This document shows, one piece after another, positions 7,273 to 64,000 of a DNA stretch of 64,000 nt. The DNA is from Candidatus Melainabacteria bacterium (GTDB taxonomy: Bacteria; Cyanobacteriota; Vampirovibrionia; Gastranaerophilales; Gastranaerophilaceae), in assembly GCA_003258735.1 (NCBI GenBank), contig QHME01000006.1:22518-86517 (forward strand), in the 5' to 3' direction. The position numbers were made by a program, and so were the translations under genes. The notes under the pieces were generated by a model that made no database searches, was not told where the DNA came from, and saw only the letters and a list, made by a program, of their open reading frames with translations. Each line of letters begins with the position of its first letter. Position 1 is the stretch's first letter.

Positions 7273-7469
7273 TTAAAATTTTTCCTAATTCCCTTTAGAA
7301 TAAAACCACCAGACTTATTCTTAATAATTTTATTATGTGACAATAGTAGCATTTATTGCAACAAAATGCAATATGCAAAATCTTTTGAACCTTTATTTTA
7401 CTTATCTCTTGCTTTTTTTTATTATAGATATTATAATTAAAACAGTAAATTTAAAGGAAAAATAAAAGG

Positions 7470-8819
7470 ATGAGTGAGTCGAGTCTGGGAATCATAATTT
7501 CCAATTGGTTGATAGTTTTTGTATTGTTACTAGTTAATGGCTTTTTTGTATCCGCAGAATTTGCAATTGTGCGTGCAAGGCGTGCTAAAATAGAACAGCT
7601 TACCAAAGATGGTAATGTAGATGCAAAATTAGCCCTAAAAGCGTTGGAAGATATGAATTTCTTCATTGCTGCCGTTCAAGTCGGTGTAACTATCGCCAGT
7701 ATCGGTATTGGTTGGTTTGGTTCTCCAACTATCGAAAAAATGATGGATCCGATTTTGTCGAACTTGCCATCATCTTATGTATATTTAACTCATACAATCA
7801 CTGCGGTTGTGGCATTTTTGGTTGTAACATTTTTGCATGTGGTTATTGGTGAGCAAGTTCCAAAATGTATTGCACTCCAATATCCTGAAAAAATTTCTCT
7901 GTATGTTGCAAAACCGATGGATATTTTTATGACGATTTCAAAACCGTTTGTATGGGTTTTGAATGTTGCATGTAATGCAATTTTGCGCTTGTTTAGAATC
8001 CCTGTTAGCACAGCTCGCGTTGTGCATACAATTGAAGACTTAGATTTGATGGTTAATACCAGCTATGACGAAGGGGTTCTAAATGAAACAGAGAAAGATA
8101 TGATACACAATGTATTCAAATTCTCTGACTTGACCGCAAGAGAAGTAATGATTCCAAGAACTGATATGGTTTGCGTTCCTATAGGGATGTCTATTGAGGA
8201 ATTAAACAAAGTTGCAACAGAAAATCAATATACAAGATATCCGGTATATGATGGCGATATCGACCATATTACAGGTTTGATTCACGTAAAAGATTTATAT
8301 TCTCTTTCAATCAAGGACGAAGTTTGCCCAATTGAAAAAATCCAAAGAAAAGTTTTGCTTGTACCTGAGACAATTACAATGGATAATCTTGTGCGCGAAT
8401 TCAAGAAAAATAAAAGTCAAATGGCTGTCGTCGTTGATGAATTTGGTGGAACTTCAGGTATTATTACATTGGAAGATGTTTTGGAAGAAATCTTTGGAGA
8501 TGTACAAGACGAATTTGATGAAGAAACAGAATTTGATATAAAAGAAATTAAACCAAATCATTATTTGGCAAACGGAATGATGCGACTTGATGAATTGGCT
8601 AATTATTTTGATTTGCCTGATGACAAATTGGAAGATGATGATGTTGATACAATTGCAGGATTGGTTGTCAAGGAACTAGGCAGACTTGCTCAGCTTGATG
8701 ATGTTGTTAAGTATCACGAATTTACATTCACCGTAAAAGAAGTTGATGGTGCAAGAATTACTAAATTGTTGGTTGTTAGAGATGAGTCTCAAGAAACCAC
8801 TGAACAACAAGAAGGGTAA
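7470..8819 (+). CDS. HlyC/CorC family transporter (CNNM/DUF21 TM domain, CBS pair, CorC_HlyC C-terminal domain)
   Basis: 449 aa. N-terminal 4-TM DUF21-like segment (LLLVNGFFVSAEFAIVRARR), a central CBS-pair region and the C-terminal transporter-associated domain. RBS AAAGGA upstream of the ATG. Confidence 0.85.
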   Translation: MSESSLGIIISNWLIVFVLLLVNGFFVSAEFAIVRARRAKIEQLTKDGNVDAKLALKALEDMNFFIAAVQVGVTIASIGIGWFGSPTIEKMMDPILSNLPSSYVYLTHTITAVVAFLVVTFLHVVIGEQVPKCIALQYPEKISLYVAKPMDIFMTISKPFVWVLNVACNAILRLFRIPVSTARVVHTIEDLDLMVNTSYDEGVLNETEKDMIHNVFKFSDLTAREVMIPRTDMVCVPIGMSIEELNKVATENQYTRYPVYDGDIDHITGLIHVKDLYSLSIKDEVCPIEKIQRKVLLVPETITMDNLVREFKKNKSQMAVVVDEFGGTSGIITLEDVLEEIFGDVQDEFDEETEFDIKEIKPNHYLANGMMRLDELANYFDLPDDKLEDDDVDTIAGLVVKELGRLAQLDDVVKYHEFTFTVKEVDGARITKLLVVRDESQETTEQQEG

Positions 8820-8878
8820 TTAAAGCACTCCCTTGCGGCTATCTATAAAGCAGGTTTGTTTTACTATGTTGACGATAT

Positions 8879-9445
8879 TTATGCAATATCGTCGCAGTCA
8901 GCAATATGAACTCGTTTAAAAGAATTTTTTAATACATCTTGGTCGCAGAGTTTTCGTTTTAGTGCTCTATCAATATGAGCATTACTTACCAAAAATTCAT
9001 CTGTATCTTTCAAATATGCGACGCTTGTTGGGCTTTTTCCATTTTGGAGTTCTGAAAATTTTATCTCTAACTGGTTTAGTAAATTGGAAAATTTGTTATA
9101 TATATCAAGGCTTTTCTTTGTATCTTTTGAACCAACAAGTAGTCCTTGTAAGTTCTCATTTTTTAGGTCAATATGGTTTCTCAAAAACATTAGGACATTA
9201 TTAAAACAGTGGTTTGAGCTGTCTTCAGGGTTTAAGTGCATAAGTATGGAATTATTTCCATCGGTAATAATGCAAGATGTGCAATCACAGATTCTATTTG
9301 TATAAACATCTTTGCCGACAACGCTTGATTCTATGTTCCAAGGAAAAGCCGCAAAATTTTTTTTCGGAATTTTTGTCCCTACATAGTCCGAAAACGATTT
9401 TATATTTATCGGCTTTATAGAAGATGTAAAACTAATATTATTCAT
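8879..9445 (-). CDS. hypothetical protein
   Basis: 188-aa ORF; no signal peptide or motif recognised. Confidence 0.4.
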   Translation of the reverse strand: MNNISFTSSIKPINIKSFSDYVGTKIPKKNFAAFPWNIESSVVGKDVYTNRICDCTSCIITDGNNSILMHLNPEDSSNHCFNNVLMFLRNHIDLKNENLQGLLVGSKDTKKSLDIYNKFSNLLNQLEIKFSELQNGKSPTSVAYLKDTDEFLVSNAHIDRALKRKLCDQDVLKNSFKRVHIADCDDIA

Positions 9446-10023
9446 TTTAGAATCACCTTTTGTATTCTTAAAAATCCCTCAAAATAAAATTTGCTATTAA
9501 AAAAGAACTTTTGCAAAAATAAAAGACCTTTTTAAAAGGTCTTTGACAAATAATTCCTATTCTAATTCTTTAAATGATTTTCTTTCCTATATGTTCCTAT
9601 ATTCCAACGATTTCAATATCTTTTTAAGCGATAAAGTTAGTTCCAAATCTGTTTGCACCGTGGAAAAAAGACTGTTTCATCATTTGTGTTAAAGTCTTTT
9701 TTACAACTTTTTTATCGTTTAAAGTAACTTCTTTCAAAGCTTTTGATGTATCTTTATATGCGCTTGTAACTGCATCAGAAAATAATAGCACTGTAGCCAT
9801 AATTTTATCCTCTCTTAATTTTGAATCTTATTTAAACTAATTTTCTTTTTCTTTATTTATCTCTTACATATATATAAAAACTTTGTTTAAAAATTTATTG
9901 ACTTTTTATATTCATTTTATATAAATTTCGTTACAATTCTTCATATATTACCTAAATGATTAAAGAATACAGGTACAAATGCCGAAATACATAATATAAG
10001 TTATGAAAGGATTGTATTAGATT

Positions 10024-49261: not shown

Positions 49262-50074
49262 CTAGATATGGTAGCCCAAATATAAGATTTGCCTTAAACT
49301 TTCAACCATGTCATCAAGTATGTTTAATGTTTCAGAATTTGGCTGAACCAGAAGTTTATTGATATTTTCTTCAAAGTTATTAGGTAAAATCTGGCAATTA
49401 TCCTTTGCATATTTAACAAGCCTTTTTTCGCCCGGATGCAATAATTCATTTACTGCAAAGATAATATCAAAATAACTAGCCATAAAAGCAGAAATTCTAT
49501 GGTTAATACTGACAATATCGTTTCTGTTTATTGCTTTTTCTATTTGTTCATAATATGAAGCAAAAGGTTTATCTTTAAGCAACATCATATTTCTTTTTAT
49601 TATATTTTGTTTAAGTGCATTTGGATATTTTGTTTGTATTGAATCTTGTATAGTTTTAAGCCAATTATCCTCATCATAAATAATTTGAAAATTATTTAAA
49701 GTAAATAAAAATGCGGTTGTATAACCATTTGATGGATAATATTTAAACCAAGTATTCTCGACAATACTTTCAAACCAATTAACATTCCAGTACATAACAT
49801 CTAATTGACTATTTAATTTATCCACAAAAAATTCATCGCCTGAGCCAAAATACTCTCCACCAACTTCATATTTTGAGGAGTGTTGTTTTACGAGTTTTTC
49901 CCTGTTTTTAACTGCTATATCTTTTTCTACAAAAACGTAAACATCTATATCTGATAAATTATCAGAAGTATTGTTTGCTCCTGAGCCACCTAAAGCAACA
50001 GCTTTGACTTCAGGGAAATTTTTATATTCATCAATAATTTTATTAAAACATTCATTCATAACATCATTATACAT
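49262..50074 (-). CDS. Pol-beta superfamily nucleotidyltransferase (aminoglycoside/antibiotic adenylyltransferase-like or minimal NTase-like), unknown substrate
   Basis: 270 aa. N-terminal motif AVALGGSGANNTSDNLSDIDVYVFV fits the hG[GS]x(9-13)D.D NTase signature, with a C-terminal helical domain. Confidence 0.5.
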   Translation of the reverse strand: MYNDVMNECFNKIIDEYKNFPEVKAVALGGSGANNTSDNLSDIDVYVFVEKDIAVKNREKLVKQHSSKYEVGGEYFGSGDEFFVDKLNSQLDVMYWNVNWFESIVENTWFKYYPSNGYTTAFLFTLNNFQIIYDEDNWLKTIQDSIQTKYPNALKQNIIKRNMMLLKDKPFASYYEQIEKAINRNDIVSINHRISAFMASYFDIIFAVNELLHPGEKRLVKYAKDNCQILPNNFEENINKLLVQPNSETLNILDDMVESLRQILYLGYHI

Positions 50075-50557
50075 AAAAATCCTTAGATAGAACTAACAAA
50101 ATGTAAAAGTAGTCCCATAACAAGATATAATTAACTATGAGATGGAGATGAGTTATTCTATTAAAATTTAGTTTTAGCTATTCATATTTTTAATTTGTCG
50201 GATTTTGAACTCACTTTTATCAAGTTGTCTCATTTTCTCTTCTAAGTCCACAGTGAATATTAATGTAAACGAACACATGAAATGATTTCTTGTAACACTT
50301 GGTTTGATTATTTAGGGCAAAATTAATAAAAAAATATCAAATTTTAGAGAATAAATAAAAAGAAAAATTTATATTTTGCTTTTTATTTTATAATTATTTG
50401 TATTTTGAATAATTATATAATTTCCTAAAATTGTATTATGATTGATACACGACAAGTGTTTGTATAAGAAGACAAAAAGTAACACACAATCCTTAAAAAT
50501 TTACAATAACAAAAATTTAATATTATCATGTTAAAATGTATTGTAAGGAGTGATTAG

Positions 50558-53500
50558 GTGATTAATACAAAAGATCCAACTTCATTTATTCGCAATTTCT
50601 TAGTTAGTAGTGACATAGACTTTTTTCTTGGCTCTGGTGCATCTTTATTAGCGGGTATTCCGAGCGGACAAAATCTAGTTTGGCAATTTAAAAAAGAAAT
50701 TTATTGTTCTGAAAATAATGTTTCCAGAGAACTATTTAAAGATCTGCAATCTGAACGAAATAGAACTAAATTACAGGATTACTTTGACTCTTTAGATGGA
50801 TTCCCCAAAAGGGGTTCAAAAGAAGAATATTCGTTTTATTTTGAAAAATGTTATGATAATACTTCTGCAAGAAATGCATATATTCAAAAGCTCGTTGCAA
50901 ATGTTGAGCCCATAAGAGGACATCTTTGTCTTGCTAATTTGTTTATTAATAATCAAGTCAAAAACATCTGGACAACAAACTTTGATGAGTTAATTGAGGT
51001 AGGCATTAAAACATTATCACCTCAATATTCATTTAATGTTGTGTCTTCAATACAGAAAGAGAGTATCTCTCAAATAGCCAATAACAATTTTCAAAATGTC
51101 ATAAAATTGCATGGTGATTATAGATATGATTCCCTACAAAATACAGAACAGGAATTACAGAATTTAGAAAGCCAATTATCAGATTTATTTTGCAAGAATT
51201 TAATGAATAAAGGACTCATTGTTATAGGTTATGCAGGAAATGATGACTCTGTAATGAAAGTTCTTGAGGATAATATAGATAATAAAGATTTTTTGAGTAA
51301 AGGAATATATTGGTGCAAGCCACAAAATACAACATTATCTGAACGGGCAAATGCTTTTATGGAAATGGCTTGTCAAAACAATGAGCTGTCTTGTGTAATT
51401 GATATTGATGGTTTTGATGAATTTTTAAATTTGATATACCGAAATTATGAGCATAAAAATCCTATAATTGATGAAAGATGGAAGGATTTTGATAATAGAA
51501 AAAAAGAAATTAATTTTTCTTCAGATAAAATAGCTCAAAGTTCATTAAAAATGAACACCTTTGTCTCAACAGAATTACCTTCTTGCAATGTATTTGAAAC
51601 AGATATAAAAAATTGGAAAGAACTACGAACAATAATAGGTGGAAACAACGATATAATCGCAGGATTATTTAATGGAAAAGTATATTCTTTTTCTAATAGT
51701 GATAAACTAAAAGAAATATTTAAAGGGCATATAAACTCAGAAATCACAACAGTATTTCCTGAAACCGAATTATTAAATAAAGAGAATTTCATATATTTAG
51801 GACTGCTTTATGAATTAATAAAAATCTCATTATTGCAAAATTCAAATATAAAATCTTTTGGAAGAAATAAATACTACTTTGTAGATTCTATATTAGACCA
51901 TCAGAATAAAGCTCGTTTCACATACAAAAGATACTCTGCTTTTGAAGTTCAGTTGTCGTATTTAAATGAAAAAATTTACCTATCTATAATACCAACTATT
52001 TATTTAACTAATAAAAATGGTAGTGAAGTCAATAAATTATACAAACAAGTTGAAATAAATAGCATAATGTCAAGCATATATAATGCTGATTATGGTAAGA
52101 TTCTAAAAGATTTAAATGCATTTCTTTGGATAAAAGGTAGTAATGAAATTATATTCACAAATAGTGATTTTTCTATAAAATTTAATTTTGTATGTTTTTC
52201 ATACAAATTATTATCAGGTTCAAAATATCCACAGATATCTTCTTTTAAATTTGACGAACCTGAAATGTTATTTGATGTTAATGATATAAATCATACAAGC
52301 ATAAATCAGTTAAAAGGTTTGCAAAGGTATGCACCTATTGATTATTCTTTTGAAACTGCCGAAAAATCGCCTATTAGAATTGCTATTTTGTCTCCAAATC
52401 AACAAATAGATAATATTATAGGACATTTAAATAATCTTAATGTAAAACATTCTGCTAATACTAAAGAAATGTTTTTGCCGAATTATGAAGGATTTTATGA
52501 AATCTATAAAAGAGCTATAAATATACCTGATAAAAACAATACGCAATTATGCAGAATGTACGATGAAACTGCAACTTCCAAAGCAAACACAGCATCTTTT
52601 GTCGATAGCATAAAATCTCAAATAGATTATTTTCAAACTCAATTATCAGATTTTGATGTTTTAGTTGTATATATACCAAAATCATTTGCAAAATTCAGAG
52701 AAGATAGTGGATATGATCCCGATTTTAATTTGCACGATGCTATAAAACTATATGGAACCAATAAAGGTGTAAAAATTCAATTTATAGAGGAACGCTCTCT
52801 AACTGCTTATGATAAATGCAAAGTAATGTGGGATTTATCCACCAGTTTATATGCAAAAGCATCTGGTGTTTTGTGGCATCCCGTCGTTTTGGATGATGAG
52901 ACTGCTTTTGTTGGAATTAGTTATGCAAAATCTAACACAAAAGGTATATGTATAGGTTGTAGCCAATTATTTGATTCAACAGGAACCGGAATAAGATTAA
53001 TATTGAAAAAATTAGACGATCCTCAATACATTGGTAAAAACCCATATATGAAGCAAGACGAAGCAAGAATAACAATAAGCAAATTAAGAGAAGAGTACTA
53101 TAAATGCGATCCTGTTGGGAAGTTAAGAAGAATTGTTATACACAAAACTACTCCATTTACAGATCAAGAAATTGCCGGTTTTACCGAAGCCTTAGAAGGG
53201 ATTGAAGATATAGAATTATTACAAATTCAAGGATATTCCCCATATAGAGCCATAAAATATTTTATACAGGATGGAAAACCATACCCCAACAGTTTCCCTA
53301 TTGAGAGAGGCACTACAATAAAATTATCTAACGATAGCTTCTTACTTTGGACACATGGTTGTGTTACTGGTAACGACATAGGGAGGAATTGCAAATACAA
53401 TTCATACTATAAGGGCAGTAGAGGTATACCAATCCCTGTTTTAGTTAAAAGGTTTTATGGCAAAGCATCAGGAGATATTCTAGTAAAAGAAATTCTAATG

Positions 53501-53644
53501 CTAACTAAAATGAATTGGAATAGTGGCGATAATCTGTATAAAAATATGCCCGTAACACTAGACTTTGCAAAGACACTTTCGAGGATGTCTAAACAAAAAG
53601 AAGCACTATATAATAAATCGTACGACTTTAGATATTTTATGTAA
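50558..53644 (+). CDS. fused SIR2-APAZ-MID-PIWI protein: short prokaryotic Argonaute with N-terminal SIR2 (NADase) effector, SPARSA-like single-chain system
   Basis: 1028 aa; GTG start with an AAGGAG RBS 6 nt upstream. N-terminal SIR2_2 motifs: FFLGSGASLLAGIPSG, IWTTNFDELIE, VIKLHGDYRYD, IVIGYAGNDD. C-terminal PIWI-like blocks: DVLVVYIPK, NLHDAIKLYGTNKGVKIQFI, VMWDLSTSLYAKASGVLWH, FVGISYAK, RIVIHKTTPF, GTTIKLSNDSFLLWTHGC, GIPIPVLVKRFYGKASGDILVKEILMLTKMNWNS, PVTLDFAKTL. Catalytic Asp positions are replaced (GISYAK, IVIHKT), so the PIWI is inactive, as in short pAgos. The intervening ~400 aa (about residues 300-700) were not examined for domain content. Confidence 0.8.
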   Translation: MINTKDPTSFIRNFLVSSDIDFFLGSGASLLAGIPSGQNLVWQFKKEIYCSENNVSRELFKDLQSERNRTKLQDYFDSLDGFPKRGSKEEYSFYFEKCYDNTSARNAYIQKLVANVEPIRGHLCLANLFINNQVKNIWTTNFDELIEVGIKTLSPQYSFNVVSSIQKESISQIANNNFQNVIKLHGDYRYDSLQNTEQELQNLESQLSDLFCKNLMNKGLIVIGYAGNDDSVMKVLEDNIDNKDFLSKGIYWCKPQNTTLSERANAFMEMACQNNELSCVIDIDGFDEFLNLIYRNYEHKNPIIDERWKDFDNRKKEINFSSDKIAQSSLKMNTFVSTELPSCNVFETDIKNWKELRTIIGGNNDIIAGLFNGKVYSFSNSDKLKEIFKGHINSEITTVFPETELLNKENFIYLGLLYELIKISLLQNSNIKSFGRNKYYFVDSILDHQNKARFTYKRYSAFEVQLSYLNEKIYLSIIPTIYLTNKNGSEVNKLYKQVEINSIMSSIYNADYGKILKDLNAFLWIKGSNEIIFTNSDFSIKFNFVCFSYKLLSGSKYPQISSFKFDEPEMLFDVNDINHTSINQLKGLQRYAPIDYSFETAEKSPIRIAILSPNQQIDNIIGHLNNLNVKHSANTKEMFLPNYEGFYEIYKRAINIPDKNNTQLCRMYDETATSKANTASFVDSIKSQIDYFQTQLSDFDVLVVYIPKSFAKFREDSGYDPDFNLHDAIKLYGTNKGVKIQFIEERSLTAYDKCKVMWDLSTSLYAKASGVLWHPVVLDDETAFVGISYAKSNTKGICIGCSQLFDSTGTGIRLILKKLDDPQYIGKNPYMKQDEARITISKLREEYYKCDPVGKLRRIVIHKTTPFTDQEIAGFTEALEGIEDIELLQIQGYSPYRAIKYFIQDGKPYPNSFPIERGTTIKLSNDSFLLWTHGCVTGNDIGRNCKYNSYYKGSRGIPIPVLVKRFYGKASGDILVKEILMLTKMNWNSGDNLYKNMPVTLDFAKTLSRMSKQKEALYNKSYDFRYFM

Positions 53645-53756
53645 ATATCTTCCTCTGCTTTGTCATACATATGTGCAATAATCAAATTATATCAGGTTTG
53701 TTACACAACGATATATTACGTATTTTCATGCTAATATAGAAGGAAAAGGGATTAAA

Positions 53757-55484
53757 ATGAGTTTAAGTGCAAATGTAAATGAAAAAGCCAATTTGATTTG
53801 GGCAATAGCGGACAAATTAACAGGGGTCTATAAGCCTCACGAATATGGAAAAGTTATTTTACCTTTAACTGTAATAAGAAGATTTGACTGCATTTTAGCA
53901 GATACAAAACAAGCAGTATTAGATAAGCATAATTCTATGGCTGAAGATTTTCCGATGCGCGAACAATTTTTAAAGAAAACATCAGGTTATGAGTTTTATA
54001 ATACAAGCAAATACACATTTGAAAGTTTATTAGATGATGCAAACAATATAGAAGCAAACTTCAAAAATTATTTAAACGGTTTTTCTGCAAATGTTAGACA
54101 AATTATAGATAAATTTGAGTTCAATAATGAAATAACAAAACTTGCAGATAAAAACTTACTTTACATAGTTATTCAAGAATTTACGACTCCAAAGGCAGAT
54201 TTACACCCGAATAAAATTTCTAATCTCGAAATGGGTTATATCTTTGAAGAAATTATTCGTAGATTTTCAGAAGCACATAATGAAGATGCCGGACAGCACT
54301 ATACTCCAAGAGAAGTTATTGAACTCATGGTAAATATCTTGTTTACTAATGATAATGACATTTTGACAAATAATGTAGCTAAAACCATTTATGACCCTGC
54401 TTGTGGTACTGGTGGTATGTTATCTGTTGCAGAAGATTATTTGAAAAAGTTAAACAGTTCTGCAACGTTGTTACCGTTCGGACAGGAAATTAATGACGAA
54501 ACCTTTGCTATTTGTAAAGCAGATATGCTTATTAAAGGAAATGATGCAGACAAAATCAGAAACGGCAATACTTTATCAGATGATAATTTTAAAGGTGAAA
54601 CTTTTGATTATATCCTTTCAAATCCGCCATTTGGCAGAGAATGGAAGAACGATAAAAAAGCTGTTGAAGATGAAGCTAAATTAGGAGCGGGTGGCAGATT
54701 TGGTGCAGGGCTTCCGGCAGTTGGTGACGGTCAAATGCTATTCCTGCAAACTGCTATTGCAAAGATGAAAGACAGTTCACAAGGTGGAAGTAAAATTGCT
54801 ATTATTCATAATGGCTCACCATTATTTACAGGTGATGCAGGCTCAGGTCCGTCTGAAATAAGAAAGTATATTCTTGAACACGATATGCTTGAAGCAATTA
54901 TTGCTCTACCCAATGATATTTTCTACAATACGGGTATTGCAACATATATTTGGGTATTATCAAACAAGAAAGAAAAACGCAGAAAAGGTAAGGTTCAACT
55001 GATTAACGCAAACGGTATGTTTGAAAAACGTAGAAAATCACTTGGGAACAAGAGAAATGACATACCAAAACATTATATTGATGAGATTACTCAAATTTAT
55101 GCTGATTTTACAGAGAATGAAGTAAGTAAAATCTTTGATAATGAAGATTTTGGGTATTCTAAGATTGTTGTCGAAAGACCTGAAAAAGACGAAAACGGTA
55201 ATCCTGTATTAAAAGGCGGTAAGCCTGTCCCTAATACAAACTTGCGTGATACTGAAAATGTACCGCTTAAAGAAGATATTGGCGAATATTTTAAAAGGGA
55301 AGTTTTACCATATGCACCAGATGCATGGATAGAAGAAAAGAAAACAAAAGTTGGTTATGAAATACCTTTTACAAGGTATTTTTATAAATATGTACCGCCA
55401 AAACCGTCAGAAGATATTATGAATGAAATAAAAGAACTTGAAAAATCTCTTGACGGAGTATTAGAGGGAATATTTAATGACTGA
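53757..55484 (+). CDS. hsdM: type I restriction-modification system methyltransferase subunit HsdM
   Basis: 575 aa. N-terminal HsdM_N (LWAIADKLTGVYKPHEYGKVILPLTVIRRFD), motif I DPACGTGGML and motif IV NPPFG. Confidence 0.9.
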   Translation: MSLSANVNEKANLIWAIADKLTGVYKPHEYGKVILPLTVIRRFDCILADTKQAVLDKHNSMAEDFPMREQFLKKTSGYEFYNTSKYTFESLLDDANNIEANFKNYLNGFSANVRQIIDKFEFNNEITKLADKNLLYIVIQEFTTPKADLHPNKISNLEMGYIFEEIIRRFSEAHNEDAGQHYTPREVIELMVNILFTNDNDILTNNVAKTIYDPACGTGGMLSVAEDYLKKLNSSATLLPFGQEINDETFAICKADMLIKGNDADKIRNGNTLSDDNFKGETFDYILSNPPFGREWKNDKKAVEDEAKLGAGGRFGAGLPAVGDGQMLFLQTAIAKMKDSSQGGSKIAIIHNGSPLFTGDAGSGPSEIRKYILEHDMLEAIIALPNDIFYNTGIATYIWVLSNKKEKRRKGKVQLINANGMFEKRRKSLGNKRNDIPKHYIDEITQIYADFTENEVSKIFDNEDFGYSKIVVERPEKDENGNPVLKGGKPVPNTNLRDTENVPLKEDIGEYFKREVLPYAPDAWIEEKKTKVGYEIPFTRYFYKYVPPKPSEDIMNEIKELEKSLDGVLEGIFND

Positions 55485-56481
55485 TAAAGGCAACAAAGGT
55501 GAAATTGTTATATATAAAAATGAGAATGGAAACATTTCATTTGAAGCGAAGTTAGAAGATGAAACAATTTGGCTAACTCAGGATATGATGGCTAAATTGT
55601 TTGAAACTACTTCTCAAAATATTACTATGCACATAAAAAATATTTATGAGGAAGAGGAGTTAGAACAAATTTCAACTTGTAAGGATTTCTTACAAGTTCG
55701 AAAAGAAGGTAAGAGAGCGGTTTCCCGTAAACTTGCTTTCTATAATCTTGATATGATACTTTCTGTCGGTTATAGAATTAAATCTAAAACGGCTACACAG
55801 TTTCGTAAATGGGCGACAACTGTTTTAAAAGAATATATGACAAAAGGTTATGCAATAAATGAACATAAACTAAAACAGGAACAAGACAAGGTTAAAACTC
55901 TGCAAGATACGATAAAACTTCTTTCAAGGAGTTTAGAATATCAGGTTCAATCCTTAGACGAAGCAAAAGATGTTGCAAAACTTATGGATAATTTTGCAGG
56001 TGGACTTGATTTATTGGATAATTACGACCACAAAAAACTTGATTCTAAAGGAGTTACAACAAAAGAAGCAGTAAAAATTGAAGAACAGGAGTTTTTGACT
56101 GTTATTGATAAAATGAAATCCGAGTTTGCATCAGACGTTTTCGCAACTCCAAAGGATGAGAGTTTTTCAAGTTCGGTTAATCAGATTTATCAAACCTTTG
56201 ACGGAAAAGAGCTTTATCCGACATTAGAAGAAAAAGCCGCAACGCTTTTATATCTGATAGTAAAAAATCACAGTTTCGCAGACGGTAACAAACGTATCGG
56301 TGCAAGTTGTTTCTTGTATTTCTTGAATAGAAACAATATGCTCTACAGAAACGATAAACCGATAATAGATAATTCAACCTTGTTTGCTCTGACACTCTTG
56401 ATAGCAACATCAAAACCTGAAGAAATGGAAACAGTAAAACAGATTGTTTTGAGTATTCTGAATAGAGGAGGGGAACGGTAA
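55477..56481 (+). CDS. RhuM-family / Doc-Fic (death-on-curing-like) fusion protein embedded in the hsd operon
   Basis: 334 aa; start overlaps the hsdM stop (ATGACTGA). The N-terminal region resembles RhuM proteins commonly found between hsdM and hsdS. The C-terminal HSFADGNKRIGAS matches the Doc/Fic H-x-F-x-D-G-N-K-R motif. Confidence 0.65.
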   Translation: MTDKGNKGEIVIYKNENGNISFEAKLEDETIWLTQDMMAKLFETTSQNITMHIKNIYEEEELEQISTCKDFLQVRKEGKRAVSRKLAFYNLDMILSVGYRIKSKTATQFRKWATTVLKEYMTKGYAINEHKLKQEQDKVKTLQDTIKLLSRSLEYQVQSLDEAKDVAKLMDNFAGGLDLLDNYDHKKLDSKGVTTKEAVKIEEQEFLTVIDKMKSEFASDVFATPKDESFSSSVNQIYQTFDGKELYPTLEEKAATLLYLIVKNHSFADGNKRIGASCFLYFLNRNNMLYRNDKPIIDNSTLFALTLLIATSKPEEMETVKQIVLSILNRGGER

Positions 56482-57807
56482 ATGTTTACAATAGAAGATC
56501 TAATAGAAAAAATATATGAACCAAAAACAAAAGAATTATTTAGAGATGTTTATACGTCTTATACTCAAGGACAGTATAGAGCCACTGTTGTTATGCTTTG
56601 GACAGTTGTAATTTGTGATTTTATATATAAACTGCAATATTTAAAAGACATTTATAATGATGCAACAGCAATCGACATATTAGAAAAAATAGCGGATAAA
56701 CAGAAAAAAAATCCTAAAAACCCAGAATGGGAGAATTTCCTTATTGATACAATTTTTGAAAGAACAAATTTTATAGATGAAATAGAAAAAGAAAATTTAA
56801 ACTATTTACAAAAACAGCGTAATTTATGTGCACACCCGATTATTACAAATGAAAATATTTTATTTAAACCGACAAAAGAACTAACACGCTCCCTAATAAG
56901 AATAGCATTGGATTCGGTACTGTTAAAATCAACATTATTATCAAAAAGGTATGTTGATACTATATTAGAAGATTTGGAAAAAAGAATTGATGACTTTTTC
57001 CCTTGGGATGATAATTTTGAGAGGTATTGTCAAAATAGGTATTTGAATCATTTAAATAAAAATCAAATCTTGAAGCTATTTAAATTATTATGGAGGATGA
57101 CTTTCTCTCCACATAATGATAGAGAAGAACAAAACTCATTTACAAATTTACAACTATTAAAATTTATATTCAAAAAATATAAATCACAATGTATTGATTA
57201 TATGAGACAAGATATTGAAGCGTACTCATATGATAAATCTAATAACAAGGCAAAGGAATATTTTAATGGCTTTATAATCGAAAATTATAACATGTATTCA
57301 CATTTATCTGAACAAACAAAAGCATTATTTGAATCTGAAATTAGACAATTCCCTAGTGACATGCCATATTTCTTTATTTCGCAAAAAACTTTTGAAGAAT
57401 ACTTAAGAGGGTTAAATGAAGAATTTAACAATCGTTTAGAAACTATCGGAAAACATTCAATTTGGCTTCCCGCAATTAATTTACGTAATCAAGCAAAAGA
57501 GAGAGAATTAGAAAATATGCTTTATAGCATGTATATTAATTGGTATGCAAGTAGTATTAACTATAATGAGGCAGATATATTATTTGATGAGTTAATAAAG
57601 AACAACCTTAAAGAATTTTCATTGGAACAAATTATAGAACTCATAAAATTTTCTTCAAAAAATAGTCAGACATATAATAGGGGGAAGGCAACACAAGACC
57701 ATAAATATATTATCCAAAGATATCTTAAATTAGATGGTGATTATGATAATATTCATAATACCCCATTTGAAGATTTATATATTGAATTAGGGGGGTGTCC
57801 ATTTTAA
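56482..57807 (+). CDS. HEPN-like (R-x4-H motif) Abi-like protein embedded in the hsd operon, uncharacterised
   Basis: 441 aa. The ATG immediately follows the upstream TAA, and its own stop overlaps the hsdS ATG (TAATG). R-x4-H motif in QRNLCAHP around residue 115; no P-loop; predicted alpha-helical. Confidence 0.4.
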   Translation: MFTIEDLIEKIYEPKTKELFRDVYTSYTQGQYRATVVMLWTVVICDFIYKLQYLKDIYNDATAIDILEKIADKQKKNPKNPEWENFLIDTIFERTNFIDEIEKENLNYLQKQRNLCAHPIITNENILFKPTKELTRSLIRIALDSVLLKSTLLSKRYVDTILEDLEKRIDDFFPWDDNFERYCQNRYLNHLNKNQILKLFKLLWRMTFSPHNDREEQNSFTNLQLLKFIFKKYKSQCIDYMRQDIEAYSYDKSNNKAKEYFNGFIIENYNMYSHLSEQTKALFESEIRQFPSDMPYFFISQKTFEEYLRGLNEEFNNRLETIGKHSIWLPAINLRNQAKERELENMLYSMYINWYASSINYNEADILFDELIKNNLKEFSLEQIIELIKFSSKNSQTYNRGKATQDHKYIIQRYLKLDGDYDNIHNTPFEDLYIELGGCPF

Positions 57808-59120
57808 TGCTACAAAGTGAAACTGTTAAAAAATACGATACATATAAAGATAGTGGGATTGAGTGGATTGGTGAAATCCCGCAAGAATGGACAGTTGGTA
57901 ATTTAAAAAGGTTAACCGATTTTATAAAGAACGGTACCTCCGCTACACAAGTTGAGAATGAAACAGAATATAAAGTTAGCCGAATTGAAACCATATCAAC
58001 TGGAGAAATAAATTATTCTAAGACTGGATATGTACAGTATTTTGATAATATTGATGATTATAAACTGAATAGCAATGACATATTGTTCTCTAATATAAAT
58101 AGTCTCGAGATGGTAGGAAATGTTGCAATTTATGATAATAAAGAATCATTGTATAGTGGAATGAATTTATTGAGAATCTCTGTAAATAAAAACTGTTGTC
58201 CAAAATGGTTATTTTATGTTCTCAAAAATTCATATTTTAAAGAACAAGTGAAAGCAAATGCAAAGCACGCAATTAATCAAGTAAGTATTAGTGTTGGTAG
58301 GTTATCTCAAATACCTATTATTATTCCGATAAAAGACGAACAACAGCAGATTGCGGATTATTTGGATAAAAAGTGTGGGGAGATTGATAAGGTTGTTGAA
58401 ACGGAAAAGTCGGTTATTGAAAAGTTAAAAGAGTATAAGCAATCAATAATTACCGAAGCCGTAACAAAAGGTTTAGACAAATCCGTTCCATTAAAAGATA
58501 GCGGTATAGAATGGATAGGCAAAATCCCTCAACATTGGGATGTTTGTAAATTGTTAAAATTATACAAAGAAAGAAAATGTAAAAATAAAGGGAATATAGA
58601 AACAAATGTATTGTCGTTAAGTTATGGTAATATTAAAAAACGTAATGTTAAAAATAATATGGGCTTGTTGCCAGAAAGCTTTGAAACATATAACATTATT
58701 ATTCCAAATAATATTGTTTTACGACTTACGGATTTACAAAATGATCATAAGAGTTTAAGATGTGGTCTTGTAAAAGAACAAGGTATTATTACTTCTGCAT
58801 ATGTAACATTAGAAAAAAAGATTGATAGAATATCATCTAATTACTATTACAGACTGCTTTATACTTTTGACATAATGAAAGGCTTTTACGGAATGGGAGA
58901 TGGAGTAAGACAAAATTTGAAGTATGACGGAGAACTTTGTAATTTACTAGTTGTTAAACCTCCTTTTGAAGAACAACAGCAAATTGCGAAATATCTTGAT
59001 AATAAATGTTCTGAAATAGACAAAGCGATAGCAGATAAGGAACAAGTTATAGAAAAATTCACCGAATACAAAAAATCCCTAATCTACGAATGCGTAACAG
59101 GCAAAAGAAAGGTAGTTTAA
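57807..59120 (+). CDS. hsdS: type I restriction-modification specificity subunit HsdS (two target-recognition domains)
   Basis: The two halves share conserved repeats (EQQQIADYLDKKCGEIDKVVETEKSVIEKLKEYKQSIITEAVTKG and EQQQIAKYLDNKCSEIDKAIADKEQVIEKFTEYKKSLIYECVTGK), and each TRD starts with SGIEWIG.IPQ.W. Start taken at the ATG 57807 (coupled); GTG 57795 is the alternative. Confidence 0.85.
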   Translation: MLQSETVKKYDTYKDSGIEWIGEIPQEWTVGNLKRLTDFIKNGTSATQVENETEYKVSRIETISTGEINYSKTGYVQYFDNIDDYKLNSNDILFSNINSLEMVGNVAIYDNKESLYSGMNLLRISVNKNCCPKWLFYVLKNSYFKEQVKANAKHAINQVSISVGRLSQIPIIIPIKDEQQQIADYLDKKCGEIDKVVETEKSVIEKLKEYKQSIITEAVTKGLDKSVPLKDSGIEWIGKIPQHWDVCKLLKLYKERKCKNKGNIETNVLSLSYGNIKKRNVKNNMGLLPESFETYNIIIPNNIVLRLTDLQNDHKSLRCGLVKEQGIITSAYVTLEKKIDRISSNYYYRLLYTFDIMKGFYGMGDGVRQNLKYDGELCNLLVVKPPFEEQQQIAKYLDNKCSEIDKAIADKEQVIEKFTEYKKSLIYECVTGKRKVV

Positions 59121-59122
59121 TT

Positions 59123-59566
59123 ATGAATATTATTGAATTTATGAAAAATTTAGATGCAAAAATATTGTGTGCAATAATTGCATTAATAAGTTCTATTATT
59201 GGTACTATCTTGGGAGCTTTTCTAACATTTATTTTTAACATATTAAATGAAATTATCAAAAGAAATAGAGACCATATTGTACACATAAAAGATGTAAAGG
59301 AAAATATTTATCAAAAATGCTGTGAATTGCTAGATAAAGTTACCCTACTCGACAAAAACAATGTTATAAATAATACTGAGTACTATGAAAGAATGGTTGA
59401 TAATTTTATTTCAATATCTGTTCAAATGAAACTGTTTACCCCAAGACATATATTTGAAAAATTTGCGGAATTAGTAAAAGAATTTAGTGATAATAAAGAT
59501 ATTTCAAAAGAAAAAGAAAAAGATTTTATTAATATATTAAGAAAAGATTTAAAAATAGAGGAATAA
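59123..59566 (+). CDS. small membrane-anchored protein embedded between hsdS and hsdR, unknown
   Basis: About 147 aa from the ATG 59123. One N-terminal TM helix (ILCAIIALISSIIGTILGAFLTFIF), then a charged helical domain. Its stop abuts the hsdR ATG. Confidence 0.4.
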   Translation: MNIIEFMKNLDAKILCAIIALISSIIGTILGAFLTFIFNILNEIIKRNRDHIVHIKDVKENIYQKCCELLDKVTLLDKNNVINNTEYYERMVDNFISISVQMKLFTPRHIFEKFAELVKEFSDNKDISKEKEKDFINILRKDLKIEE

Positions 59567-59569
59567 ACA

Positions 59570-62500
59570 ATGCAAGACACTTTATTAAAAGAAAAAAATT
59601 TTGAAGAAGCGATTGAGAATTATTTAATAACAGAAGGTGGTTATGAAAAAGGGATTCCCGAACATCTAAACAGAGCTTCTGCATTAGATGAAGATACCTT
59701 TATCAATTTTATAAAAACTACTCAACCAACCGAATGGGAAAAACATACACGAAATTATCCTAACAATCCCGAACAGGCTCTTTTAAGAAGATTTCAAGAA
59801 GAAGTATCCGCTACAAATTTGTTGCAAGTTTTAAGACATGGTTTTAAAGATAGAGGTGTAAAGTTCTATCCATGTTATTTTAAACCCGAAACAACAATGA
59901 ATCCCGAACATAACAAAAAATATTCTCAAAACATTCTGCATTGCACTCGTCAGATGAAATTTTCTTTGTTAGATGAAAGAAGTATTGATATTGTTCTTTT
60001 GCTTAATGGTATTCCTGTCGTATCTATGGAACTCAAAAATCAATTCACCGGACAAGATGTTTCAAACGCAATAAGTCAATATAAATTCGATAGAGCCACA
60101 AAAGACAAAATGTTTGAATTTAAGCAAAGAGTTTTAGTACATTTTGCAGTTGATTTGTATGACGTTTATATGACTACAAGATTACAGGGAACAAGCACAT
60201 ATTTCTTGCCATTCAATCAAGGTTCAAACGGTGCTGGAAATGTAGGTGGTAAAGGGAACCCACAGATAGAAGATGATTATTTAACCTCATACCTTTGGAA
60301 AAGAGTTTTGAAAAAAGATTCATTAATGGAAATCTTGCAAAAATATATGCACCTTAAAGTTGAAGATATAAAAGACAAAGACGGCAAGATAACAGGCAAA
60401 AAAGAAACTATGATATTCCCTCGTTATCACCAATTAGATGTCGTAACTAAATTATTGGAAGATGTAAAAGAAAACGGTAGTGGCAAAAACTACTTAATTC
60501 AACATAGTGCCGGTAGTGGAAAATCAAACTCTATAGCTTGGCTTGCACATAGATTACAAAGTTTACACGATAAAAATGACGAAGTTATCTTCAATTCTGT
60601 TATCGTTGTTACTGATAGAAAAATTCTTGATAGCCAATTACAAGATACAATTTATCAGTTCGACCATATTGACGGAGTTGTAAGACCAATAACAAAAGGC
60701 TCTGAAAGTTTAAAGACTGCTCTTAATGACGGTGCAAAAATTATTATTACAACTTTGCAGAAATTCCCATACATCTATCAAGATGTTCAAGCAACAGGAA
60801 AAAGATACGCAGTAATTGTAGATGAGGCACATTCTTCTCAATCGGGTACGGCTGCTAAAAAATTAAAAGTTGCATTAGGTGATACGGAAGAAGTGCTAGA
60901 ACAATACGCAAGAGAGGAAGCCGAAGAAGAAAGCAAAATGGAAGATTACGAAGATAATTTGGTAAAAGAATTGTCAACTCATGGTATGCACAAAAATATA
61001 TCTTTCTTTGCTTTTACTGCTACACCTAAAAATAAGACATTACAATTATTTGGTGAAAAACAAGAAAACGGAACATATAGACCGTTTCATATTTATTCAA
61101 TGCGACAGGCTATTGAAGAAGGGTTTATTTTAGATGTTCTTCAAAATTATACGACATATAGACAATATTATAAAATAGCAAAGAAAATTGAAGGCGATCC
61201 GGAATATGATAAAGCGAAAGGTGCAAGAGCAGTTTCAAGATTTGAAAGTTTACACCCTCATAATATTGCTCAAAAAACTGCGATTATAATTGAACACTTT
61301 AGAGAAGTTACCAAAAATAAAATAGACGGCAAAGCAAAGGCTATGGTAGTTACTGCATCAAGATTACACGCCGTAAGATATTTATTTGAGTTTAGAAGAT
61401 ACATACAAGAACATAACTATACTGATTTGGATGTATTAGTAGCATTTTCGGGAAGTATTGAAGATGAAGGACAAGAGTGGACTGAAGAAAAAATCAATAA
61501 AACAAAAGACGGTGAAGTTATTAAAGAAAACCAACTCAAAAAATACTTCCATGATGAGTTTGATATGCTTATTGTTGCAGAAAAATATCAAACCGGATTT
61601 GATGAGCCACTACTTCATACAATGTTTGTTGATAAAAAATTAAATAGTGTAAAAGCAGTTCAAACATTATCAAGACTTAATAGAACAACAAGAGGCAAAG
61701 AAGATACTTTTGTTCTTGACTTTGCTAACACACAGGAAGAAATACAAAGAGCATTTCAACCGTTCTATGAGGCAACTGTTCTTGAAGATGAAACTGATCC
61801 AAACTTGATTTATACACTTAAACGACAATTAGACGATTTTCATGTATATCAAGAAAGAGAAGTTGAAGAATTTGCAAAGAAATTCTATCAAAAAACGATT
61901 CCTACATTAAGCATACTTTCACCAATATTAAAGCCTGCGGTTGAAAGATATGAGGCATTAGAAGATAAACAAAAAGACGAATTTAAGTCATTGATACATG
62001 GGTTTAACAGGTCTTATTCTTTCATCACGCAAATATGCAGAATGTTTGATAAAGACATGCAAAAACTATATGTCTTTACCAAATACTTGACTAAATTATT
62101 ACCTATAGATAATTCTGAAAAAATTAATTTAGAAGATGCGTTATTGCTTGAATATTACAAACTTCAAAAAACAGCTGAAGGTAATATAACATTAGAAAAA
62201 ACTGAAGGTGTTGTTCCTGGAATAAAAGGTGGTGCCAGATCGGGTAGTAAAGAAAAAGAAAAAGGAAGTCTGTCTGAAATACTTGATAAATTCAACAAGA
62301 AATTCGGTACAACATTTACTGAACAAGATAAAGTTCTTGCACAATTAAAAGCTGATATGATGAAAAATGAGCAAATGGCTAATTCTGCCAAATCAGGTGA
62401 TAAAACTGCATTTAAAACACTTTATGATAAACAATTTAACGATATTGCTATTAATCGTTATGAAGAAAACGACAGCTTCTTTAAAGGGTTATTTGAAAAC

Positions 62501-62575
62501 GCAGACAAACTTAAATTTATAAAAGAATTGTTATTGGCAGATGTTTATAACGAATTAAGAAACAAGGGAATATAA
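59570..62575 (+). CDS. hsdR: type I restriction enzyme R subunit HsdR
   Basis: 1001 aa. N-terminal HsdR_N nuclease region; SF2 helicase motif I QHSAGSGKSNSIAW and motif II VIVDEAHSSQ; C-terminal helical domain. Confidence 0.9.
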   Translation: MQDTLLKEKNFEEAIENYLITEGGYEKGIPEHLNRASALDEDTFINFIKTTQPTEWEKHTRNYPNNPEQALLRRFQEEVSATNLLQVLRHGFKDRGVKFYPCYFKPETTMNPEHNKKYSQNILHCTRQMKFSLLDERSIDIVLLLNGIPVVSMELKNQFTGQDVSNAISQYKFDRATKDKMFEFKQRVLVHFAVDLYDVYMTTRLQGTSTYFLPFNQGSNGAGNVGGKGNPQIEDDYLTSYLWKRVLKKDSLMEILQKYMHLKVEDIKDKDGKITGKKETMIFPRYHQLDVVTKLLEDVKENGSGKNYLIQHSAGSGKSNSIAWLAHRLQSLHDKNDEVIFNSVIVVTDRKILDSQLQDTIYQFDHIDGVVRPITKGSESLKTALNDGAKIIITTLQKFPYIYQDVQATGKRYAVIVDEAHSSQSGTAAKKLKVALGDTEEVLEQYAREEAEEESKMEDYEDNLVKELSTHGMHKNISFFAFTATPKNKTLQLFGEKQENGTYRPFHIYSMRQAIEEGFILDVLQNYTTYRQYYKIAKKIEGDPEYDKAKGARAVSRFESLHPHNIAQKTAIIIEHFREVTKNKIDGKAKAMVVTASRLHAVRYLFEFRRYIQEHNYTDLDVLVAFSGSIEDEGQEWTEEKINKTKDGEVIKENQLKKYFHDEFDMLIVAEKYQTGFDEPLLHTMFVDKKLNSVKAVQTLSRLNRTTRGKEDTFVLDFANTQEEIQRAFQPFYEATVLEDETDPNLIYTLKRQLDDFHVYQEREVEEFAKKFYQKTIPTLSILSPILKPAVERYEALEDKQKDEFKSLIHGFNRSYSFITQICRMFDKDMQKLYVFTKYLTKLLPIDNSEKINLEDALLLEYYKLQKTAEGNITLEKTEGVVPGIKGGARSGSKEKEKGSLSEILDKFNKKFGTTFTEQDKVLAQLKADMMKNEQMANSAKSGDKTAFKTLYDKQFNDIAINRYEENDSFFKGLFENADKLKFIKELLLADVYNELRNKGI

Positions 62576-62576
62576 A

Positions 62577-63530
62577 AATGTATAAACCACCATTTGAAAT
62601 TACATCAAAAATAATTGAACTTATTTCCAATATTTCGGGAAAAATTGGAGAAATTAATTATCTTCAAAATAACCCCTATCATATGCAATAGCGAAAAGAA
62701 AACTGAATTAAAACTATTCATTCTTCGCTTGCTATTGAAAACAACAGTTTGAGCCTAAAGCAAATTACAGCAATAAGTGAAGGTAAACACGTACTTGGAA
62801 ATCCTAATGAGATTAAGGAAGTAAAGAATTCTATTAGGGCTTATGATTTGCTTTTATCACTTAAGCCATATAATGAAAAAGACTTACTAAAAGCTCACAA
62901 ACTTATGATGCAAGATTTAGTTGATAGAAATGGCAAATACAGAACATACGGAGTTGGAATATTTGACGGAGAAAAAGTTGTTCATCTTGCACCTTCTGCG
63001 GATAGAGTTCCGGAACTATGTTTAATTTGTTCAAATGGCAAAAAGAAAGCGATGCACATCCGCTTATTAAAAGCTGTGTTTCTCATTACGAATTTGAAAT
63101 TATTCACCCATTTCAAGACGAAAATGGCAGAATGGGGCGTTTGTGGCAGACTGTAATTTTAAAAGAATGGAAAGAAATATTTGCTTGGCTTTCTGTTGAA
63201 ACATTAATTAAAGAAAATCAGAAAGAATATTATAATGTTCTTGGGGCAAGTGACAGTGATGCAAATAGCACCAAATTTATAGAATTTATGCTTTCTTTAA
63301 TCTTGAATACAATAGAAGAAATTATTGAAACAGAAAAAAGGTTTACTGTAAATCAACAAAAAATTATTGATGCAATAAAAGACAATCCGTATGTTACACA
63401 AGAAGAACTTGCTGATATTGTTGGAATTGCAAGAAAAAATATAATTGCAAATATGAAAAAACTCCAAACAAACGGATTAATAAAACGTGTTGGTGCCGAT
63501 AAAAATGGTCATTGGCTTGTTGAAGACTAA
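62577..63530 (+). pseudogene. Fic-family (FIC domain, HPFx[DE]GNGR) gene, degraded
   Basis: The N-terminal frame MYKPPFEITSKIIELISNISGKIGEINYLQNNPYHMQ contains in-frame TAG and TGA stops within the conserved LRKEN.IKTIHSSLAIENNSL region. A frameshift splits ORFs 62749..63156 and 63018..63530. The Fic motif EIIHPFQDENGRMGRLW is present in the last frame. Confidence 0.65.
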
Positions 63531-63553
63531 TTTCTTTAAGTTATGATTATACC

Positions 63554-64000
63554 TTAAGCAATTAGATTATTTTTTAAATCATCATAAAGATAGTCAAAGT
63601 CTTTTTCTCTTCTCCAGATATACTCAGCAAGGCGATAGTACATAAAATTCTGATTAATATTGTGACTTTCAATTCTTGAAAGATAACAATACATTCTTTT
63701 AAATTCTCTAATTTCATCTTTGTTGTAATTCTTTTCTAATGAGGCTCTGAGTAATTTTTCACTTACAAAAACTTGATTATTGTAAATATAGAAAAATGCG
63801 AACTTATTGTAAAATGTCCTATATCTGCCGATTTGTGGTTCTTCCATAAACAAATTTATTAAATTCTTAAATTGGCGATTATAAATGTTTTTTCTAAAAA
63901 GACAGTAATAATCACAAACGCATTGATATTGTATGTTCAAGAATTTACATAATTTTTGTGGGGGTATTTCCAAACAAAAACCTTTTAAAAGAATATCCAT
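63554..64000 (-). CDS. hypothetical protein (may continue beyond window end)
   Basis: 148-aa ORF abutting the window edge; Cys/Tyr-rich N-terminal part; no motif assigned. Confidence 0.3.
   Translation of the reverse strand: MDILLKGFCLEIPPQKLCKFLNIQYQCVCDYYCLFRKNIYNRQFKNLINLFMEEPQIGRYRTFYNKFAFFYIYNNQVFVSEKLLRASLEKNYNKDEIREFKRMYCYLSRIESHNINQNFMYYRLAEYIWRREKDFDYLYDDLKNNLIA

Follow-up and report, generated by a model that had tools for sequence, protein, structure and literature searches.

A type I restriction–modification operon with three nested genes, among them a DARNA homologue, in a Candidatus Melainabacteria contig

Type I restriction–modification (R-M) loci are known to harbour embedded defence genes, as illustrated by PrrC, by TgvAB and by systematic 'guilt-by-embedding' searches (Payne et al., 2024), and neighbourhoods that combine R-M genes with HEPN and DOC/RhuM genes have been described as a 'three-level defense strategy' directed at DNA, RNA and protein, with RhuM–DOC fusions noted among them (Anantharaman et al., 2013; PMC3710099). 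Here we describe such a locus in a 64,000-nucleotide stretch of contig QHME01000006.1 (positions 22,518 to 86,517 of the forward strand) from the Candidatus Melainabacteria assembly GCA_003258735.1, hereafter called the window. A type I R-M operon in this window contains three nested passenger genes, which encode a RhuM–Doc fusion, a homologue of the HEPN nuclease DARNA and a small membrane protein that we refer to as TM. An initial annotation of the sequence had recognized this arrangement and had taken hsd loci to be hotspots in which defence genes become embedded, a view that is established in the literature (the 2013 neighbourhoods, TgvAB and guilt-by-embedding). We consider it likely that the locus is an intact hsdM–hsdS–hsdR operon with two cassette slots holding independent, co-expressed defence cassettes, and not a guard of the PrrC type, because the passengers are independent of one another and DARNA works alone in a P2-like prophage of Escherichia coli.

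The R-M system looks intact, to judge from its domains and motifs. HsdM is identical to RAI12809.1 (named 'restriction endonuclease subunit M' at NCBI), matches Pfam N6_Mtase (7.8e-63) and HsdM_N (2.2e-26) and PADLOC MTase_I (1.5e-265), and has an S-adenosylmethionine motif (DPACGTG, aa 213) as well as a catalytic NPPF (aa 289). HsdR corresponds to RAI12814.1 ('restriction endonuclease subunit R'), four proteins being called between the two accessions; it matches Pfam HSDR_N, SWI2_SNF2, ResIII and T1R_D3-like domains, PADLOC REase_I and NCBIfam hsdR (2.1e-58, which is under the equivalog cut-off of that model), and carries the N-terminal PD-(D/E)xK nuclease (D..ELK, aa 135–156) and the SF2 motor (Walker A GSGKS, aa 315; DEAH, aa 418) of a type I HsdR. 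HsdS matches Pfam Methylase_S (7.2e-20) and, over its full length, PADLOC Specificity_I (2.1e-94, aa 11–440). DNA comparison with related loci resolves hsdS into two variable target recognition domains (TRDs), TRD1 at about 57890–58338 and TRD2 at about 58545–58970, around a conserved central block (58338–58545). The TRD regions have been swapped between loci that are otherwise 95–97% identical, and HsdS is only 41–63% identical to the window protein in related loci where HsdM is 86–100% identical. No hsdS shufflon or inverted repeats were found by a repeat search of 50000–64000. These domain matches, together with the open reading frame (ORF) listing, confirm a complete type I operon with three nested genes.

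The six genes abut or overlap throughout, as had been proposed, with junctions in the ORF listing for 50000–64000 whose extremes are an overlap of 8 nt and a gap of 3 nt. hsdM and the RhuM–Doc gene overlap by 8 nt at 55477–55484 (ATGACTGA), the RhuM–Doc gene meets that of the DARNA homologue at TAAATG (56479–56484), and the latter is joined to hsdS by TAATG, which makes the ATG at 57807, and not an upstream in-frame GTG at 57795, the hsdS start. The hsdS/TM junction, TAATTATG, with the TM ATG at 59123, was missing from the junctions quoted in the initial annotation; an alternative ATG at 59090 would give a TM protein of 158 aa. TM is followed by hsdR at TAAACAATG, with the hsdR ATG at 59570. 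Ahead of every downstream start is a purine-rich stretch resembling a Shine–Dalgarno sequence, and each stretch extends over the end of the gene before it (GAGGGA, GAGGAGGGG, GGGGGG, AAAGG and AGAGGA). An intrinsic-terminator scan of the + strand found no terminator-like sites in 53000–64000, and promoter-like matches were at background (62, compared with 58.9 +/- 8.1 in shuffled sequence); in this AT-rich DNA (30% GC) such scans are uninformative except for the missing + strand terminators. A single transcript probably carries the six genes, and their translation is probably coupled; this would entail their co-regulation and co-transfer. The arrangement is not a product of chance or of assembly, since the same order occurs in independent metagenome contigs whose DARNA proteins are 62–97% identical to that of the window.

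DARNA was discovered as PD-T7-3 by functional selection in E. coli ECOR30 and validated as a system consisting of a single HEPN gene (Vassallo et al., 2022). The excerpts that we draw on from the preprint in which it is renamed (bioRxiv 10.64898/2026.02.22.705581) describe a dodecamer with an N-terminal HEPN domain (R117x4H122) that is triggered by single-stranded DNA (ssDNA) presented by the SSB (single-stranded DNA-binding protein) of the phage, not that of the host, and that cuts tRNA anticodon loops with an abortive-infection phenotype; mutants in the same excerpts assign R98, K201 and K204 to RNA binding and F6 and E347 to the inter-hexamer interface. The 441-aa protein of the window has no matches in Pfam or NCBIfam and was identified only through PADLOC and PDB sequence searches, in which it matches PD-T7-3 (9.8e-120, aa 2–422, against a 432-position model), the 12-chain entry 9wxf named 'Dandelion' (1.5e-68, aa 2–407) and the 'Dandelion-hepn' fragment 9wx2 (1.1e-39). 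The PADLOC and 9wxf matches bear out the proposal that the second insert is a true HEPN protein with an Rx4H motif. A possible assignment to DUF4145 was not sustained (E 0.02, 15.4 bits against a cut-off of 23.1, and only around the Rx4H motif), and profile searches gave no Abi_2 match for the inserts.

The protein is predicted to consist of an N-terminal HEPN RNase domain (about aa 1–155) followed by a C-terminal helical domain that would sense ssDNA. Its Rx4H dyad, R113-NLCA-H118, aligns to R117/H122, and neither R113 nor H118 varies among 50 homologues. As a reference we used the 455-aa E. coli DARNA from a RefSeq genome, located with the Ewingella DARNA gene; the corresponding gene of a Citrobacter metagenome-assembled genome (MAG) gave no match in E. 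coli genomes when used as the query. The two proteins are 32% identical, and R117, H122, R98, K201, K204, F6 and E347 of the E. coli protein are all conserved in the window. At the ssDNA site, F368 is replaced by Y361, which keeps an aromatic residue, and W406 by N399, in a column that is variable across the family. The interface residues (F6 to F2, E347 to E340 and N33 to Q29) appear compatible with a dodecamer.

The first insert is, as suggested previously, a fusion of RhuM to a Doc-type Fic domain, which Pfam, PADLOC and NCBIfam profiles all recognize. An N-terminal RhuM region (Pfam Virulence_RhuM, 8e-28, aa 66–139, 97.8 bits against a cut-off of 33.7, covering model positions 1–74 of 252) is followed by a linker that is helical in a low-confidence model and by the C-terminal Fic domain (Pfam Fic, 4.4e-11, aa 226–283, 43.9 bits against 24). 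The match to the PADLOC candidate PDC-S23 is full length (1.8e-127, aa 7–330 of 327), that to NCBIfam DOC_P1 is barely at threshold (38.7 bits against 38.65), the PHROGs add only a Doc-like toxin (6.9e-17), and solved Doc proteins in the PDB resemble the fusion weakly (best 6e-5). Bro-N similarity of the N-terminal part is below threshold (E 0.035), and some homologues have precomputed Bro-N or pRha matches. The Doc-type motif H265-SFADGNKR-273 is intact, with H, F, D, G, N, K and R invariant in 30 homologues. It has the form HxFx(D/N)(A/G)NKR, the Doc variant that makes P1 Doc a kinase of EF-Tu, and not the AMPylating form HPFx(D/E)GNGR. AlphaFold2 modelled the fusion poorly (pLDDT 49.8), because all usable homologues are at least 70% identical.

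Fusions of this type, which NCBI names 'virulence protein RhuM/Fic/DOC family protein', are very abundant: a search at E <= 1e-10 gave at least 7999 clusters. Neither a Phd-like nor an MNT-like labile antitoxin gene was found among the operon ORFs by inspection of the ORF listing and Pfam searches; since a Phd-like ORF is absent and Doc is fused to RhuM, the protein would act in a Doc-like manner but not as part of a Phd/Doc toxin–antitoxin module. A related gene that encodes RhuM only, PDC-S05, protected E. coli B from T7, T5 and T4, about 1000-fold in the case of T7 and T5, and 'Virulence RhuM family protein' genes are statistically enriched beside invertible hsdS genes; in the literature searched we found no published test of PDC-S23.

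The operon was compared with related loci in other metagenome contigs. In seven of these (L081–84, in which DARNA is 97% identical to that of the window, and L085–87, in which it is 62–63% identical) the order is hsdM–RhuM/Doc–DARNA–hsdS–small ORF–hsdR, with an extra 278-aa ORF ahead of hsdS in L085 and L087 and an Mrr-type nuclease in place of the TM gene in L086. L088–90 have RhuM–Doc, a 172-aa ORF and TM without DARNA, L091 has two unannotated ORFs and TM without RhuM–Doc or DARNA, and in L093 both slots hold several additional genes; all of these are sister operons of the same HsdM/HsdR lineage. The three passengers thus occur independently of each other, and the 8-nt overlap of hsdM with RhuM–Doc is kept in almost every sister locus. 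The DNA of the window is 95–97% identical to that of L081 over 50261–57891 and again from 59495 on, and between these only the central hsdS block matches; relative to L088 the breaks fall on the boundaries of the DARNA ORF, and TRD1 and TM are shared but not TRD2 (protein identities are given in Table 1). Breaks at gene boundaries, together with the varying contents, define two cassette slots, one between hsdM and hsdS and the other between hsdS and hsdR.

The slots of the sister operons also hold ORFs of 172, 268, 276, 278, 241, 239 and 119 aa without Pfam or PADLOC matches, as well as a Vpar_1526-family gene (L088, 6991–7509; L091, 5038–6667; L085, 11417–12253; L093, 5331–6768 and 9465–10864), and by their embedding these are candidates for further defence genes. 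In L088, hsdR is followed by a 198-aa ORF with a weak match to HepT-like HEPN proteins. A Resolvase gene (serine recombinase, 202–208 aa) flanks the hsd operon in L085 (17178–17786), L088 (13149–13757) and L093 (1431–2057) but is not present in the window; it may be related to the mobility of the sister copies or to hsdS variation.

DARNA is not an hsd-specific gene. Searches by tblastn with single hsd sequences, which are too insensitive across type I families, detected hsd genes within 10 kb at only about 10 of 80 species-representative DARNA loci, and this approach gave way to Pfam scans of the genes directly next to each of 74 DARNA homologues, in which the upstream neighbour was HsdM or HsdR in about one case and an SNF2-type helicase in 13–14. 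The E. coli gene stands by itself in a P2-like prophage, flanked by the genes for tail-fibre assembly and for the tail sheath, and in a Gastranaerophilaceae MAG (L002) DARNA directly follows a SIR2-pAgo gene 85% identical to that of the window, with no hsd genes detected. The helicase just mentioned is a protein of about 925 aa (SNF2-rel_dom, Helicase_C and ResIII) whose gene stops about 12 nt before DARNA in those 13–14 species-representative loci (L006, L012–L017, L019, L030, L031, L035 and L037, at about 7200–9990 in each), which suggests a conserved two-gene SNF2–DARNA variant; we found no mention of the pairing in the passages of the DARNA preprint that were searched.

Only the family of the third passenger lacks a description in the libraries that were searched: TM has no family match in Pfam, NCBIfam or PADLOC, and its relatives comprise four close clusters and 11 matches at E <= 1e-3 among 1.84 billion representatives. 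Family members are 127–148 aa long and share a transmembrane helix, which in TM spans about aa 14–41 (Kyte–Doolittle maximum 2.51 at aa 14–32); given the K/R-rich sequence after the helix, the positive-inside rule would place the C-terminal 100 aa or so in the cytoplasm. An AlphaFold2 model based on 11 family members (pLDDT 86.4) is all-helical, with a long helix (12–76) and three further helices predicted to form a four-helix bundle, and Foldseek found no fold match in the PDB other than generic or designed four-helix bundles at E > 1 (best 1.3). In every contig that shows both flanks, the gene lies between hsdS and hsdR of one type I lineage. The dN/dS ratio between the window and L088 is 0.21 for TM (HsdM 0.04, HsdR 0.075, RhuM–Doc 0.22 and HsdS 0.28), which identifies TM as a real coding gene, and TM is only 24% identical to its L081 counterpart despite the near identity of HsdM, RhuM–Doc and HsdR in that locus; this divergence and the cassette-wise breaks indicate an independently exchanged, highly variable cassette. 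That TM serves DARNA or Doc as antitoxin or partner can be ruled out, since it occurs without either (L088–90 and L091), and a tie between the TM variant and TRD2 can be ruled out as well, the window and L088 having TRD1 and TM in common but not TRD2. The earlier suggestion that the membrane protein is a component of defence went too far, as no such function is demonstrated, or predicted by Pfam, PADLOC, NCBIfam, PHROGs or Foldseek.

What TM does is a matter for speculation; the likeliest possibilities are that it serves this R-M lineage as an accessory or sensor tethered to the membrane, or that it is a small abortive-infection effector. A more ambitious proposal, which we consider unlikely, would see in it a fourth component, new and hypervariable, of one type I R-M lineage, which would act as a sensor of, or decoy for, phage anti-restriction factors or as an abortive effector and would diversify by cassette exchange as TRDs do. 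It is very doubtful that the ORF is simply a spacer or leader, kept only to couple the translation of hsdR to that of hsdS. The only strongly conserved stretch of the protein is its C-terminal RKDLKIE[DE], whose codons contain the Shine–Dalgarno sequence of the next gene, the window and L081 regain DNA homology 70 nt ahead of the TM stop, and the protein is without a family or fold match; however, the low dN/dS ratio, the maintenance of architecture and length down to 24% identity with G31, E60 and Y63 invariant, and the confident predicted fold all argue against a spacer, as do the facts that TM precedes a gene other than hsdR in L093 and L095 and that the four accessions between RAI12809 and RAI12814 include a gene called at this position by NCBI.

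If the cassettes are independent, the hsdM–hsdS slot of the window would contain two autonomous abortive-infection-type genes and the hsdS–hsdR slot one small membrane protein, and the layers of defence need not depend on each other to function. The R-M enzyme, with its intact motifs, would methylate host DNA and cut unmethylated incoming DNA. By homology to the characterized protein, the DARNA homologue would wait as an inactive HEPN oligomer until, in the course of phage replication, SSB presents ssDNA to which the C-terminal domain could bind; the activated HEPN site (R113/H118) would then cut the anticodon loops of host tRNAs, and translation would stop. RhuM–Doc, to go by its motif, may phosphorylate one of the translation factors, in the way that P1 Doc acts on EF-Tu, with the fused RhuM/Bro-N-like N-terminus perhaps replacing the Phd antitoxin as a sensor or regulator in cis. 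Several points weigh against this interpretation: all of the activities at this locus are deduced from homology, motifs, geometry and distribution; the translational coupling is suggested by the geometry of the junctions; the target and trigger of RhuM–Doc are hypothetical, and its structural model is poor; the trigger of the DARNA homologue could differ, because W406 is not conserved; and the retention of the 8-nt overlap between hsdM and RhuM–Doc across loci could reflect a closer functional tie to the R-M enzyme.

A rival explanation is that one or more passengers are guards of the PrrC type, held inactive on the HsdMS/HsdR complex and released when a phage anti-restriction protein (Ocr, Stp or one like ArdA) disables the enzyme. 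The embedding of the genes in a type I locus, as with prrC in EcoprrI, the constancy of the RhuM–Doc overlap and the confinement of TM to this R-M lineage are in keeping with a guard, which we nevertheless regard as improbable here. DARNA is without the ABC-ATPase module of PrrC (Pfam, PADLOC and NCBIfam found no ATPase domain in the three passengers, and the HEPN domain is N-terminal in the window protein versus C-terminal in PrrC and RloC), functions as a one-gene system in response to a defined ssDNA/SSB trigger according to the preprint excerpts, and lies mostly away from hsd genes; the RhuM–Doc family is huge, a RhuM-only gene defends by itself, and passengers have been gained and lost independently (L086, L088–90 and L091). 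The initial annotation, largely right in other respects, therefore over-reached not only on the membrane protein but also in describing the genes as a 'backup' in the sense of PrrC, since DARNA is a single-gene system found mostly outside hsd loci and the passengers vary independently; a PrrC-like guard is unsupported for DARNA and a minority possibility for RhuM–Doc and TM, whose association with this R-M lineage is the more faithful one. We think it highly unlikely that the Doc and HEPN toxins are selfish post-segregational killers that stabilize the hsd operon or the transposon rather than act in phage defence. Doc serves as the toxin in the Phd/Doc addiction module of P1, the island is mobile, toxin-like genes are embedded in an R-M system, and R-M systems can themselves behave selfishly; yet the operon has no labile antitoxin gene of the Phd or MNT type, RhuM family members protect from phage, and for the DARNA family published work provides direct anti-phage evidence and a phage-derived trigger.

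The independent-cassette interpretation accords with the wider setting of the operon, the whole island (50264–64000 in the window) probably being the cargo of a Tn7/Tn5053-like transposon. Its left end lies at 50264 (5'-TGTAAACGAACACATG...TTTGATTATTTAGGG), from where the sequence is 95–97% identical to four other contigs, and at least three different insertion contexts (the window, L081 and L082/84) have unrelated DNA on the left side, the flank of L083 being different again. On the far side, the related contigs carry TniB and Mu-transposase-C genes (L081, 17038–20400; L082, 16389–19294; beyond the end of the window) followed by two or three inverted copies of TTTGATTATTTAGGG. Within the island, a fused SIR2-APAZ-pAgo gene (short prokaryotic Argonaute; hypothetical at NCBI, RAI12808.1) ends 112 nt upstream of hsdM and is split into two ORFs in L081. 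A broken SoFic-like gene begins 2 nt after the hsdR stop; L082 and L084 have a deletion from window position 63014. A sequencing error can be ruled out, as the same 170-aa fragment occurs in independent contigs, and its presence in L083 marks the gene as a genuine pseudogene. Just outside the transposon end, and not in the shared island, a 270-aa ORF contains a motif GSG...DIDVYVF that we take to be typical of nucleotidyltransferases.

Table 1. Genes of the type I R-M operon and its neighbours, with protein identities in two related loci (positions in the window)
Feature	Position	Strand	Basis or remark	Identity in L081 (%)	Identity in L088 (%)
hsdM, type I methyltransferase subunit, 575 aa	53757–55484	+	Pfam, PADLOC, motifs	100	93
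RhuM–Doc fusion, 334 aa	55477–56481	+	Pfam, PADLOC PDC-S23, NCBIfam, PHROG	100	80
DARNA / PD-T7-3 / 'Dandelion' homologue, 441 aa	56482–57807	+	PADLOC, PDB sequence matches	97	-
hsdS, specificity subunit, 437 aa from ATG 57807	57807–59120	+	Pfam, PADLOC	47	63
Small membrane protein (TM), 147 aa	59123–59566	+	Hydropathy, AlphaFold2 model, dN/dS	24	71
hsdR, restriction/translocase subunit, 1001 aa	59570–62575	+	Pfam, PADLOC, motifs	99	84
Fused SIR2-APAZ-pAgo, 1028 aa	50558–53644	+	PADLOC Aga_SIR2-PNTD1-PNTD2, 1201 bits		
SoFic-like Fic/helix-turn-helix gene, broken	62578–63530	+	At least 3 frames (62578–~62690, 62749–63156, 63018–63530)		
270-aa ORF	49262–50074	-	Outside the shared island		

The locus is a fresh example of a known pattern, since the combination of R-M, HEPN and DOC/RhuM genes was described in 2013. 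What is new is the occurrence of DARNA as the HEPN layer, in Melainabacteria and on a transposon, and we judge the novelty to be low to moderate. It nonetheless illustrates cleanly how, in nature, a type I R-M operon can carry interchangeable abortive-infection cassettes, it places a recently characterized nuclease in a new genomic context and a new phylum (gut Melainabacteria), on a transposon that also bears SIR2-pAgo, and it allows a 'hypothetical' protein of 441 aa to be named. The very abundant RhuM–Doc fusions and the small hypervariable membrane protein retain their interest, and neither overturns current understanding.

Among described systems, the neighbourhoods of Anantharaman et al. 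(2013) likewise combine a type I R-M system, a HEPN RNase and a RhuM–DOC fusion, with DNA, RNA and protein as the predicted targets; their HEPN proteins are ABC-ATPase fusions like PrrC and RloC, whereas the window has the ATPase-less DARNA and an additional small membrane protein. In EcoprrI, too, a gene for a HEPN anticodon nuclease lies within a type I hsd operon, but PrrC, whose N-terminal part is an ABC-ATPase, is kept silent by the R-M enzyme until T4 Stp triggers it; DARNA, by contrast, has no ATPase and responds, as described in the preprint excerpts, to ssDNA together with phage SSB. TgvAB, in the type I R-M operon of Vibrio cholerae VPI-2, resembles the window in consisting of nested independent defence genes, which hit phages that the R-M system misses, and differs in that its effectors are GmrSD-like DNases, those of the window being putative RNase and kinase toxins. 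Of the two PADLOC candidates, PDC-S23 and PDC-S05, it is the former that the RhuM–Doc protein matches from end to end, and it shares the Doc-type HxFxDGNKR motif with the P1 toxin, from which it differs in having a RhuM domain fused in cis instead of a Phd antitoxin. The closest relationship is with DARNA itself: the homology to the E. coli protein is full length, with an N-terminal HEPN Rx4H domain and a C-terminal helical domain of similar length, even though identity is only 32% and W406 and F368 are replaced by N and Y, and a gene that stands alone in a P2-like prophage hotspot in E. coli is found in Melainabacteria within a type I R-M operon that is probably borne on a transposon.

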